Of a stretch of 64,000 nucleotides of DNA, positions 3,301-15,460 are shown in pieces (position 1 is the first letter of the stretch; the number at the start of each line of letters is the position of its first letter). The DNA comes from a virus, in UHGV virus genome UHGV-0125821. One strand, 5' to 3'. The position numbers and the translations under genes are program-made. The notes beneath the pieces are model-generated. The model was given only the letters and a program-made list of their open reading frames with translations. It did no database searches and was not told where the DNA came from.

Positions 3301-3876
3301 ATGTTAATGGCGAACGATAACGCATATGCAGAAGAAGATCTCATTTTGAGTGACTTCATAGGGAAGCGTGAACGCTGGACCCAAAAGCGAGAGGAACTTT
3401 ACGCCTCATTAGTTCGCAAAGGCGTCAATATCGAAACCGCACAGAGCGGCGATATGACAGTGGTAAGCGTTGGATTGCACGGTGTAAGCGTGTCAGCAAT
3501 CAATCATGAGCCATACGTTGCGTTATCCGAGTCAATGGTAAGGTTAGTTAAGTTCCTGAAGTACACAGAAGCGAATAATGTAATCATTGGCAAAAAGAAT
3601 ATCCCTTTTTCCTCGGCTTTTTACTGGATGATGAAAGGGCTTGATGCCCGGCGGACATCATGGCCTAAAGGGAGCTATATATCGATGTTCCGTGGCAGCA
3701 TTGGCAGCAAAGAAAAGCTCTTCGAATTCTTGCCGGAAGAGGCATTCGATATTGTGGAAGGGTGCGATGTGATGGTGATGCCTCGCCTGGTAATGATGAA
3801 TGGTGATTTACAGGCGCAGACAGACTGGTTTGCAACTGGTGTGGATATTATCGCGACTGACTGGGAGGCTTTCTGA
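3301..3876 (+). CDS. hypothetical protein with Trp-rich C-terminal domain (DUF2829-like)
   Basis: SD AAGGAG before ATG; C-terminus W..G..RR..W ... D(I/L)(I/L)A.DW shared with ORF 11524..12186. Confidence 0.65.
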   Translation: MLMANDNAYAEEDLILSDFIGKRERWTQKREELYASLVRKGVNIETAQSGDMTVVSVGLHGVSVSAINHEPYVALSESMVRLVKFLKYTEANNVIIGKKNIPFSSAFYWMMKGLDARRTSWPKGSYISMFRGSIGSKEKLFEFLPEEAFDIVEGCDVMVMPRLVMMNGDLQAQTDWFATGVDIIATDWEAF

Positions 3877-11523: not shown

Positions 11524-12186
11524 ATGGTCAGCACTTTTCAGGTGTTCCCCAAATACAAATGCCACAGCATCATTCGGGCATCGAAAATCAAAGATATTGT
11601 TATTGTCGGCAAAGCTTATGCGCCCATTTTTGGCAGTATCGAAGTCGTTGAGCCAAAAGGAATGACGCTTCGTGTTGATGGTGTGTTCTTGGAAAAATTC
11701 CGACCGCAAATAGGAGGATATCTCGTCACTGCTGAAAATGGCTATCTGGTCTATGTGCCAGAGAAAGCATTTGAAAAATGCTATAGCCGGGTTAACGACG
11801 CCTCCGAAAATGGGGTATCGCTCAGCATTGAAGGTCACAATGGGGTGACATTCATTACAGCCAGGGACGTAACTATTTCTGCTGGCGGTATCGCTACTCT
11901 ACAAGAAGAAATCGACCTTGAAGCAGCCGACTTTTCTGACGCGCTGATGTGGCTGAAGGATGGCAAGAAAGTTGCCCGGCGCGGGTGGAACGGCGAAAAC
12001 CAATTCTGCTGGCTGGTTCCTGAAGGACAGTACCCGGCACGAATGGAAGCCATTAAGGGATATTTCCCCGGCGATCTCGTTCCGTATGGTGCTTATTTCG
12101 CCTTAAAAAATGCACAAGGTGTAGTTGTTCCGTGGTTGCCTTCTGTAGGCGACTTACTGGCATGTGACTGGTTTGTAGTGGAGTGA
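11524..12186 (+). CDS. hypothetical protein with DUF2829-like C-terminal domain
   Basis: ALMWLKDGKKVARRGWNG ... DLLACDWFVVE. Confidence 0.65.
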   Translation: MVSTFQVFPKYKCHSIIRASKIKDIVIVGKAYAPIFGSIEVVEPKGMTLRVDGVFLEKFRPQIGGYLVTAENGYLVYVPEKAFEKCYSRVNDASENGVSLSIEGHNGVTFITARDVTISAGGIATLQEEIDLEAADFSDALMWLKDGKKVARRGWNGENQFCWLVPEGQYPARMEAIKGYFPGDLVPYGAYFALKNAQGVVVPWLPSVGDLLACDWFVVE

Positions 12187-12993: not shown

Positions 12994-13047
12994 AAACATC
13001 ACCGAATTAGCTGGCTGACAGCAGAAAAAATCATTGAGTGATAGTAG

Positions 13048-13076
13048 GAAGCCCGCCTGGTTGAGCGGGCTTCTTT
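13048..13076. terminator. bidirectional intrinsic terminator between convergent genes
   Basis: GCCCGC ctggttga GCGGGC followed by TTCTTTTC. Confidence 0.5.
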
Positions 13077-13457
13077 TCAAATATTGGAACCAAATAATTC
13101 ACGTAGTTTTTCCGCTACTGAAGATACGGGGATTTCTCCAGTTGCGGCCCCCACCGCAAGTTCCACCAGCACGGGAGAATCATATACCTGTATACCGTTA
13201 CGGCGTAGAAATAGCAGCGCACTGTTTAGCGCGGTACGCTTATTGGCATCATTGAATATATGCCCTCTCGCCGTAGCCACCAGGTAGGTGGCGGAGACTT
13301 CGAAAAGGTCGGTGATCTCTTCGTAGGCAACTCTGGCCTGAACTCTCCCGATAATGGCCTCTGCCCTACCCGGATCTGACATTCCCGGCAGGCCGCCGTA
13401 GCGGCTTATATTCGCATCATGAAGCGCAATAAGTTCTTCCGGTGATATATGCCTCAT
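13077..13457 (-). CDS. doc: Doc toxin (Fic-fold kinase)
   Basis: near-identical over most of its length to P1 Doc as I recall it. Confidence 0.9.
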
Positions 13458-13678
13458 TATCGGTTAACCAGTTCCTTGTTGGTGGAGTCCAGGGTGTCAA
13501 ACAGGGATGCAAATTCAGCATCCAGCGCCGCTTTTTTGTAGGCTTCAAAAGTAGCCTTGCTGACAATTACTGCTGGCTCTCGGCCTCTGCGGGTGATTTC
13601 AACCTCTTCCCCGGCTTCAACATTGTTGAGCACTTCAGAAAGGTTGCCGCGCGCGGTACGGAAGTTAATGGATTGCAT
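13457..13678 (-). CDS. phd: Phd antitoxin
   Basis: [49 protein letters not shown]... matches P1 Phd from memory; start set at second Met. Confidence 0.9.
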
Positions 13679-13786
13679 AAACACCTCGTGTGCTCGTTAT
13701 GTGTACGCAATTATAGGTTTTAATGATGCTGAATACCACTTCTTGGTGCCTTAAATCCTCGAGATGCAGTCTTGCAATTGCTGGGA

Positions 13787-14209
13787 TTAAGCAGAATAAG
13801 TGGTTGGAATTCTGAGCAGTAATCCAATCTTGGCTATGTGTGCATATGGCAGCTCTCCGGTTTTACCATCATGTATCGAGGCTATCAGATTCAATTCTTG
13901 CGCCGCTTTACGAATTTCAGTTTCTGATGGAACAAGGCGAAAACCGGTGTGTAACATTTTGATATAGAAAGGTAATAGTTCGTACTTCACCCGTAACTGT
14001 GCTGCCGCATCTTTCAAATCATGGATGATTTCTTGTTTTAAGTCAGAGCGGGGATTCGATAGCTTTGCTTGGTTAGACAATAACAGATGCGATATTTCCC
14101 CCAACTGTTCCTTGAATGAAATGTAAGACTCAACCCCCTTGATGATGAGTCGACCTAGGACAAAAACGCTTACTCCAGTGACAACAGTGACAAAAGCAGA
14201 CGAACTCAT
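13787..14209 (-). CDS. membrane-anchored hypothetical protein (N-terminal TM helix)
   Basis: 140 aa, hydrophobic N-terminus; lies between humD and phd-doc. Confidence 0.55.
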   Translation of the reverse strand: MSSSAFVTVVTGVSVFVLGRLIIKGVESYISFKEQLGEISHLLLSNQAKLSNPRSDLKQEIIHDLKDAAAQLRVKYELLPFYIKMLHTGFRLVPSETEIRKAAQELNLIASIHDGKTGELPYAHIAKIGLLLRIPTTYSA

Positions 14210-14343
14210 TCGCGTACCTAAAAAGAGAATTATAACCTCATCTTATCTTCAAGTGAGTAACCGCGTCTAATGGGAGGAATCATTTAAATGGCCAGGGCGA
14301 TATAGAGCCAGTCATGCCTCTCTATGGTTTCTCTGAAAACAAA

Positions 14344-14733
14344 TCATATAGCAGGACTATCATCAAATTCACCGCCCCTGGCGTCATTGATAATGTGGGT
14401 GATCACACCAAAAACAGCATTACTACCCGTGTAACCATCGTCATCTACTGGTAACGCCTCTTTCTTCCCGGTGCTTAAATCCTCCAGGTGCTGGCGCGGA
14501 TACTTCCGGTATCTTTTTACGCGATATTCCCCCTCCATAGCGCATATAAGCAGTGAGCCATCAACCGGAGTAAGTGAGGAATCAACCACCAGCAAAGCAC
14601 CTTGCAATATTCCCTCACGGTGATGGCTGTCTGCCGCCCGCATGAAGTAGGTCGCTGAAGGATGTCTGATTAGTTGCTGATCAAGAGAAATACGGCTCTC
14701 TGCATAATCCGCCGCAGGAGAAGGGAAGCCCAT
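14344..14733 (-). CDS. humD: UmuD-prime-like protein
   Basis: GFPSPAADY...HPSATYF...FGV(I/V)xH core of UmuD C-terminal domain, no N-terminal cleavage arm. Confidence 0.8.
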   Translation of the reverse strand: MGFPSPAADYAESRISLDQQLIRHPSATYFMRAADSHHREGILQGALLVVDSSLTPVDGSLLICAMEGEYRVKRYRKYPRQHLEDLSTGKKEALPVDDDGYTGSNAVFGVITHIINDARGGEFDDSPAI

Positions 14734-14751: not shown

Positions 14752-14771
14752 TACTGTTTATTCATACAGTA
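14752..14771. promoter_or_regulatory. LexA box
   Basis: TACTGTTTATTCATACAGTA (CTGT-N8-ACAG) about 20 bp upstream of humD start. Confidence 0.6.
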
Positions 14772-14832
14772 TACATTGAAAAGGCATAGTTTGTGAAAGC
14801 GGGGTTTGCAGGCGCGCCACGCTGGGGGCTAA

Positions 14833-15225
14833 TCACATTGGTGGCGTGAACTTGCCATTCATATATTGCAAAATGCTTGACTCAATTTTTTCATTAAAAT
14901 CAGAATGATGCTCCTCAAGGACAAAGCGCGCCTTATTGTTGCGCACAATAACCTCCGCCAACGGACTAACCAGAGATGTGGAGTTAGAGATTTTCTCGGC
15001 GCGCTCTACATCGCTTTTAAACGTTACGATGAAGTGCTGGTGGCCTGGTGACCGGCGACACAACATGCGTCGCACTTCCACGGTATCTTCACGGCCTTGA
15101 GTATGTACAGGAAAGCTATCGACCACCGCTGTATTGGTGCGGATTGTCTGCATAGAACGCGTGTTGTCGTGATAGTTAAGCATGTTTAATGTCTTCCCCA
15201 TCTTGCCGTTATTTTCTTGGTGCAT
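14833..15225 (-). CDS. hypothetical protein
   Basis: ORF between humD and hot. Confidence 0.55.
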
Positions 15226-15460
15226 CCTCGTTCTGATACACCGGATGGCTCCCTTTTGGCAACTGGAGGCTTAACTGCCGGTAGTGCCGTAACCGTTCCA
15301 TGAAATAGGTGCGCAGGTTCTCTGGTTGCTCGCGGGCTACCTGTTCAGCCATGACAGGTATGTTCAATCGCTCTTTGTACGCCACACCGCTGGCAGCCAG
15401 ATCAACGTTAACCTTATCCCGTTCTTCCTGACTTTTAGCTGCAATATTCCAGTCGCTCAT
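15209..15460 (-). CDS. hot: DNA polymerase III theta-subunit homolog
   Basis: [36 protein letters not shown] closely parallels HolE. Confidence 0.8.

Follow-up and report, generated by a model that had tools for sequence, protein, structure and literature searches.

Among the roles known for small membrane proteins that temperate elements encode, the one with the best precedent is protection of the carrier from other phages or mobile elements, through superinfection exclusion or abortive infection. T4 Imm, P22 SieA, HK97 gp15, and P1 Sim are small inner-membrane superinfection-exclusion proteins, and they are expressed independently of the lytic programme. Membrane-acting abortive-infection effectors, such as lambda RexB and those of CBASS and Pycsar, work with a sensor partner. 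The genomic setting considered here is known from phage P1, where humD, whose product complements UmuD', and the phd-doc addiction module lie side by side. Only 72 nt separate the humD stop codon from the phd start codon in P1, and the phd promoter is the sole content of this gap. An earlier note on the DNA described here had described humD and phd-doc as neighbours in P1, and in this it was right.

The window (the whole stretch of DNA that was analysed, 64,000 nt) is a D6-like (P1g2-type) plasmid prophage, and the region of interest is 96–97% identical to that of phage D6. Between humD and phd, it carries a gene for a protein of 140 amino acids. The arrangement is as follows:

13077 to 13457, minus strand: doc toxin gene (Pfam Fic/DOC)
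13457 to 13678, minus strand: phd antitoxin gene (Pfam PhdYeFM), directly downstream of the 140-residue gene
13787 to 14209, minus strand: accessory gene, the orthologue of D6 orf109; open reading frame from ATG to TAA, 140 amino acids
14344 to 14733, minus strand: humD, encoding a UmuD'-like S24 peptidase (Pfam Peptidase_S24), directly upstream of the 140-residue gene and co-oriented with it
13716 to 14353, 638 bp: segment without a P1 or P7 counterpart, delimited by BLAST break-points and alignment

Homology to P1 ends at 13715/13716 and 14353/14354 in both BLAST and alignment, and between these break-points 45 bp in P1 correspond to 638 bp in the window. The segment is made up of a 134-nt upstream region, the open reading frame, and 71 nt downstream. 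The flanking genes are readily recognised as those of P1, with nucleotide identities of 90.8% in humD and 93.8% in phd-doc, and alignment with the annotated P1 sequence indicates that the −10 element and operator region of the phd promoter Pphd (13685–13715) have been retained. The gene is absent from P1, P7, SJ46, RCS47, and other P1-like phages, whose matches are split into two pieces. In a tblastn search of 50,697 deposited phage records, a homologue was found in D6 alone. The synteny comparison thus agrees with the earlier view of a gene inserted between humD and phd-doc; it is extra relative to P1 and P7 and present in D6. A copy with a known function at this position in P1 itself was what would have spoken against the note, and P1 does not carry one.

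The gene itself is already annotated as D6 orf109 (H7U15_gp018, YP_009914786.1), with which it shares 99.1% nucleotide identity and the same position between humD and phd; the two proteins differ at two amino acids (T/I and A/E). The whole segment is also present, with 100% identity, in the E. coli plasmid NZ_CP047013.1 from swine. The databases assign no function to the gene. D6 orf109 is listed as a “hypothetical protein” and PHROG 7512, to which the product belongs, as “unknown function”, and the literature search found no paper that names the accession numbers of the gene or the PHROG.

The neighbourhood of the gene in the window differs from that in D6 at two places. One is 14833–15460 (minus strand), between the humD promoter and hot. 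Here, the hot gene of the window is full-length and P1-like (15209–15460; 83 amino acids, DNA_pol3_theta, 93% nucleotide identity to P1) and is accompanied by an open reading frame of 130 amino acids (14833–15225; PHROG 2594, unknown function), while D6 has only an annotated 147-nt hot fragment and a different gene, orf106. The other is 12994–13076, where only 83 nt lie between the stop codon of the isaA-like gene and that of doc. The pdcA-like gene found downstream of doc in D6 (orf112) and in P1 is missing from the window.

The 140-residue gene also stands out in base composition. The earlier note had called it lower in GC, and the values bear this out: its GC content is 0.42, while humD, phd, and doc are at 0.50–0.51 and the window as a whole is at 0.47, and its GC at third codon positions is 0.40, compared with 0.46–0.48 for the three neighbours. 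The GC content of the whole 638-bp segment is 0.418. Such a departure from the surroundings is one of the marks by which a moron is recognised. Another is the pattern of presence and absence, and D6 and D6-like plasmids carry the gene, whereas P1-like relatives lack it at the same site. A repeat search found neither direct nor inverted repeats flanking the segment, so the hallmarks of transposition are absent. There is no second copy of the gene in the window. The locus gave no relevant Rfam match and no sign of a hidden RNA or a type I toxin–antitoxin system, and computed folds predicted stable folding for neither of the intergenic regions around the gene.

Some trace of the way in which the segment arrived may have been kept downstream of the gene. 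At 13735–13760, the window reads GGATTTAAGG, which resembles the last codons and the stop codon of P1 humD, TCATTTAAG. The P1 stretch in this comparison is about 3597–3650 of locus L002 (comparison loci are given here by L numbers), and in the window GGATTTAAGG is followed by sequence of weak similarity. The similarity, too weak to be decisive, hints that the segment may have entered a P1-like humD gene at its extreme end and not been lost from P1.

The relation of the gene to its two neighbours becomes clearer in four D6-like elements (L018–L021), in which humD and the gene are present and phd-doc is absent. The flanks of these elements are close to those of the window, with 99% nucleotide identity on the dUTPase/isaA side and 87% on the hot side, whereas the block formed by humD and the gene is only 71% identical. 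At the protein level, identity to the window is 76% for HumD and about 70% for the gene product. Alleles at the same site therefore differ at about 30% of their amino acids between flanks that are 87–99% identical. By these alignments, the divergence of D6-like elements has affected humD and the gene as a single block, and within the D6 lineage, the gene is the constant neighbour of humD and phd-doc is the variable piece. Because L018–L021 have humD and the gene without phd-doc, the adjacency of the gene to the addiction module is incidental.

This bears directly on the reading in which the gene would be a third component or an accessory of the phd-doc module. The gene does lie immediately upstream of phd, in the same orientation and with no terminator before phd. 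However, in P1 the module is complete and autoregulates in the absence of the gene, the −10 element and operator of Pphd are kept in the window, and all other contexts of the gene family lack Phd and Doc. Membership in the module is hardly credible, and the four elements that carry the gene without phd-doc effectively exclude it. The earlier note had based its functional suggestion on a position next to addiction and SOS genes; humD has proved to be a stable neighbour within the D6 lineage, and the nearness to the addiction genes incidental.

The open reading frame at 13787–14209 is a genuine gene and not a chance reading frame, as its PHROG match, its homologues, and its dN/dS values demonstrate. 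The match to PHROG 7512 covers the full length (E 1.4e-76; residues 1–140 on profile positions 1–141). In pairwise comparisons of the window gene with the homologous genes of other elements, dN/dS was 0.11–0.37, and the gene is under purifying selection. The protein belongs to no named family, as the earlier note had held: no match was found in Pfam-A (hmmscan, E<=1), NCBIfam, or PADLOC (E<=1). When the search was widened to 29 members (the window protein and 28 diverse relatives), there was no consistent Pfam match, and PADLOC-DB v2 gave only four isolated matches at chance level. The Pfam superinfection-exclusion, immunity, holin, LemA, and DUF1043 families were unmatched by the protein, and nothing consistent appeared for them among the 29 members. 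The family is nevertheless large. A word-indexed search returned only 18 clusters, all from enterobacteria, and an exhaustive profile search was needed to reach 1003 clusters (50% identity) at E<=1e-3, of which 228 were at E<=1e-10. Nearly all of these clusters are 135–160 residues long and align from end to end. A wider scan of genome contigs returned just a single locus, since there is no long peptide that the whole family conserves.

The N-terminal anchor described in the earlier note was recovered both from hydropathy and as a helix in the AlphaFold2 model. The most hydrophobic 19-mer of the window protein starts at residue 5 (Kyte-Doolittle 2.19), the transmembrane helix is predicted at about residues 5–23, and hydropathy gave no second hydrophobic segment in this protein. 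The same holds for the family: among 155 members, the median start of the hydrophobic stretch is residue 5, the median score is 2.22, and a second segment occurs in only 5. The positive-inside rule relates flanking charge to membrane topology. In the family, the mean number of Lys and Arg residues is 0.2 before the helix (net charge −0.3); over the 15 residues that follow the helix, it is 2.2. Because positive charge follows the helix and does not precede it, an N-out/C-in topology is predicted. The AlphaFold2 model, built from the family alignment, has a pLDDT of 85.3 and a pTM of 0.75. In this model, one long helix (residues 3–45) comprises the membrane segment and continues as the first member of an up-down four-helix bundle, completed by helices 59–77, 96–113, and 121–132. 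The product is thus predicted to be a bitopic inner-membrane protein with a very short outside N-terminus, one transmembrane helix, and a cytoplasmic four-helix bundle of about 115 residues.

The model gave no informative fold match, and a profile search of PDB sequences returned only spurious coiled-coil matches. The invariant or near-invariant positions of the family are Leu44, Pro94, Leu132, Val13, Pro28, Asn107, and Tyr138. This set does not look catalytic, and for that reason the protein most likely works through binding or oligomerisation and not as an enzyme. The allele shared by the window and D6 deviates at two well-conserved positions of the family, Q20R and P28S.

Relatives of the gene are spread over several kinds of mobile elements. 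A copy that is 73% identical is found on phage-plasmids of about 48 kb whose RepA is of the IncFII type; there, it is divergent from a small HTH gene and near HigBA. A tblastn search found a homologue in 346 plasmid records, 264 of them conjugative, including pAPEC-O1-ColBM (IncF) and IncX1 and IncX4 plasmids. A relative occurs in 333 of 5426 complete E. coli genomes (about 6%). There are 340 copies in all, 336 of them plasmid-borne; the carriers include ColV/ColBM virulence plasmids and IncX plasmids. Many prophages also carry relatives. In lambdoid prophages (Atlantibacter and others; 27 IMG/VR loci), the copy is solitary, with the replication genes on one side and the DUF1367/nin genes on the other. 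It is on the strand opposite to theirs and thus antisense to the early rightward operon in which it lies. In Desulfuromusa and metagenome contigs, solitary chromosomal copies have metabolic genes as neighbours.

On the conjugative plasmids, the family member often sits between genes of unknown function for proteins of 159 and 500 amino acids. Neither flanking gene has a match in Pfam, NCBIfam, or PADLOC, and neither is present in the window. On IncF (pAPEC-O1-ColBM) and IncX4 plasmids (L022 4326–7509; L024 5329–8464; L009–L013), the 159-residue gene is divergent from the family member, and the three genes may form a unit on these plasmids. An inverted repeat, ACTGGAC...GTCCAGT, lies immediately upstream of the promoter-like element in the IncF and IncX4 copies. 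A reading of the inverted repeat upstream of plasmid copies as a LexA box was rejected, since its spacing is wrong for LexA.

Some members of the family adjoin genes of defence or of toxin–antitoxin systems. The pAPEC-O1 copy (L022) lies in an island bounded by IS1, beside a protein with a DpnII/MboI-type, Argonaute-associated restriction endonuclease domain. On a mobilisable plasmid (L031), the copy stands between a relaxase gene and a gene for an Mrr-type restriction enzyme, with a type III restriction-modification system and a DEDDh exonuclease nearby. On a viral contig (L035 3171–6414), a member with 47% identity is divergent from a gene for a 542-residue ABC/OLD-type ATPase, which matches PADLOC NsnB at 5e-55. 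This ATPase is accompanied by a partner of 297 amino acids, and the arrangement resembles a defence pair adjoining the family member. The toxin–antitoxin neighbours are phd-doc in the window, HigBA in L003, and HicAB in L014. No partner gene recurs across the contexts; what moves between phage-plasmids, conjugative plasmids, and lambdoid prophages is the single gene with its promoter-like element. In the window itself, a gene at 11524–12186 (plus strand), about 1.6 kb from the 140-residue gene, encodes a 220-residue protein whose C-terminal part matches the Pfam family Tad2-like (PF11195, E 2e-22), the Thoeris anti-defence 2 domain, and is a candidate anti-defence gene. Its D6 homologue is shorter and is annotated only as DUF2829.

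This distribution can be read in more than one way. The product could be a factor of membrane physiology or fitness that acts outside any conflict with phages or mobile elements, for example an envelope-stress adaptor or a regulator of host membrane proteins, and that is carried as cargo. The size of the family, the solitary chromosomal copies among metabolic genes (Desulfuromusa, metagenome contigs), and the lack of a match to any defence model are in keeping with this, as is the architecture, since an N-terminal anchor followed by a cytoplasmic helical domain is also found in housekeeping bitopic proteins such as YhcB/DUF1043 and LemA. A housekeeping role does not sit well, however, with E. 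coli copies that are nearly all on plasmids (336/340), with a patchy distribution and an antisense placement in prophage operons, or with alleles that diverge strongly between near-identical flanks; moreover, no Pfam family of this kind was matched. On balance, the fitness role is somewhat unlikely.

The sequence upstream of the gene contains elements that may govern its expression, and further elements precede humD:

14216 to 14219, minus strand: Shine-Dalgarno-like AGGT, 6 nt before the ATG
14229 to 14234, minus strand: second TATAAT, a perfect one (14234–14229), within the upstream region
14240 to 14269, minus strand: candidate promoter of the gene itself (−35 TAGACG at 14269–14264, 18-nt spacer, −10 TAAGAT at 14245–14240)
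14754 to 14769: LexA box CTGTTTATTCATACAG, found by pattern search; in the P1 annotation, a LexA site occupies this position
14768 to 14797, minus strand: humD promoter-like site (14797–14768), TTCACA-18-TATACT, 10/12 consensus matches, with its −10 element overlapped by the LexA box

The upstream regions from seven contexts (the window, the D6-like variant, the 48-kb phage-plasmid, IncF L009, IncF pAPEC-O1-ColBM, IncX1, and IncX4) align over about 65 nt. All seven share TAGAC(A/G)-N17/18-TA(A/G)GAT, followed by about 25 nt, AGG, and the ATG. The candidate promoter has 8/12 consensus matches, which is below the threshold of a generic scan. From the conservation of these elements, we infer a weak sigma-70 promoter and a ribosome-binding site that travel with the gene.

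A second source of transcription may lie further upstream. Apart from the LexA box, the window contains no CTGT-N8-ACAG site. Between humD and the gene, and again between the gene and phd, neither a terminator-like site nor a stable hairpin was found, and the gene has no terminator of its own in 13685–13786, where the fold is no more stable than that of shuffled sequence. With a LexA box lying over the humD promoter and neither terminator nor hairpin behind humD, SOS-induced read-through from this promoter into the gene, and onward into phd-doc, is plausible. The gene's own upstream region contains no LexA box, as judged by pattern search. The earlier assignment to an SOS-controlled leftward operon thus comes down to read-through at most: the LexA box at the humD promoter and the missing terminator after humD would permit read-through, whereas the promoter-like element of the gene itself, which is conserved also on plasmids without humD, speaks for separate expression.

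A closer functional tie to HumD and the SOS response has to be weighed here. The gene would then follow humD as second cistron of a shared operon, and the product could, for example, be a membrane protein induced by damage, or one that modulates or tethers UmuD'-like proteins. The position of the gene 134 nt downstream of LexA-controlled humD, with the same orientation and no terminator between, would suit such a tie, and so would the common divergence of humD and the gene in D6-like elements and the dinQ-like SOS toxins near the IncX copies. An unrelated viral contig (L059 3468–6447) provides a second, independent case near UmuD-like genes: a umuD-umuC pair and a member with 40% identity occupy opposite strands some 800 nt apart, and the interval holds a gene for 193 amino acids. 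The family member is, however, divergent from umuDC and outside the operon. In most contexts (48-kb phage-plasmids, IncF, IncX, and lambdoid prophages), no umuD or umuC is found within 6–8 kb, P1 and P7 HumD function without the gene, and, as stated above, no LexA box lies in the region upstream of the gene. A function tied to HumD or the SOS response is therefore improbable.

The upstream region also raises the question of late transcription. A membrane protein of the lytic cycle (a holin, an antiholin, or a lysis-timing factor) could be expressed from a P1-type late promoter, and the size and single transmembrane helix of the product are like those of small lysis regulators. Upstream of the gene, CGGTTACTC-9 nt-TAAGAT resembles the −22 box of the P1 late promoter LPhot, AAGTTACTT-9 nt-AATAAT. 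The resemblance does not distinguish the site from chance, given that the motif was found 10 times in the window against 8.8 expected from shuffled sequence, and the late promoter was rejected. Furthermore, the gene is frequent on conjugative plasmids and chromosomes from which both the Lpa activator and a lysis cassette are missing, the lambdoid copies are antisense to lytic transcription, and no holin family of Pfam was matched. A lytic role is very improbable.

Taken together, the gene is best explained as a single-gene accessory cassette (“moron”), consisting of a putative promoter and one gene, which is resident directly downstream of humD in the D6 lineage. The traits that it shares with morons are a lower GC content, patchy presence, an antisense position in prophages, and exchange between different kinds of elements, to which the candidate promoter of its own may be added; it has no terminator of its own. 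In the plasmid-prophage state, the gene would be transcribed from its weak sigma-70 promoter, and after DNA damage, transcription would be raised through read-through from the LexA-repressed humD promoter. Two observations count against this scheme of expression, namely the 8/12 promoter and the co-orientation of the gene with its neighbours in the window. The product, at the inner face of the membrane, would then protect the carrier cell or element from incoming phages or rival mobile elements. Such protection could come about through entry exclusion or through an abortive, membrane-directed response when the bundle binds a protein of the invader.

A protective role of this kind, whether superinfection exclusion or abortive infection, had been suggested by the earlier note; it is argued from analogy and is put forward tentatively, as a possibility. 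It fits because defence or toxin–antitoxin genes are occasional neighbours, because the family is biased towards plasmids, and because alleles diverge between near-identical flanks. It is weakened by the fact that defence neighbours occur in only some contexts and that chromosomal copies lie in ordinary metabolic neighbourhoods, as well as by an uninformative fold and the absence of a matching PADLOC model. The departures of the window protein from the family at Q20R and P28S also count against it. More specifically, the product might be a stand-alone exclusion or abortive-infection determinant of about 140 residues, in which the bundle senses a component of the invading phage or plasmid and the transmembrane helix blocks DNA entry or collapses the membrane. 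The promoter-attached gene would be traded among phage-plasmids, conjugative plasmids, and prophages, and a family of about 1000 clusters without a Pfam entry would thereby gain its first recognised representative. This more detailed version is doubtful.

If the protective role is correct, the gene would represent a very compact, single-gene determinant of defence or exclusion that is absent from current defence catalogues. It would also offer a clean example of one cargo gene being exchanged between phage-plasmids and conjugative plasmids. For phage-plasmids, gene exchange with plasmids is reported to be more frequent than gene exchange with phages (PMC10879196). If the protective role is not correct, the gene is still D6 orf109 and still stands outside phd-doc, and the family merits a database entry as a membrane-anchored four-helix-bundle protein.

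The comparison with known systems can be drawn at several levels. At the level of the locus, the counterpart is the humD–phd-doc junction of P1 and P7, with flanking genes that are 91–94% identical and with a conserved LexA box and Pphd −10 element and operator; what P1 lacks is the gene. At the level of the protein, YhcB/DUF1043 and LemA offer a likeness in their short N-terminus, single transmembrane helix, and helical cytoplasmic domain of about 110–150 residues. They differ in that neither the protein nor its 28 relatives has a Pfam match to them and in that, in E. coli, the gene belongs to mobile elements and not to the core genome. With lambda RexB and the transmembrane effectors of CBASS and Pycsar, the product has in common that it is membrane-anchored and borne by mobile elements, with some family members adjoining defence genes. 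The gene differs from these in having no conserved partner and no PADLOC match. T4 Imm, P22 SieA, HK97 gp15, and P1 Sim differ from the product in sequence and fold, with no Pfam similarity at E<=1 and no fold match for the 140-residue protein, and in topology, since its bulk is predicted to be cytoplasmic and not periplasmic or multi-spanning. What it shares with them is that they are all small accessory membrane proteins of temperate elements, of comparable size and moron-like placement. The gene is thus an uncharacterised addition to the known class of moron-encoded small membrane proteins, and its novelty is modest.
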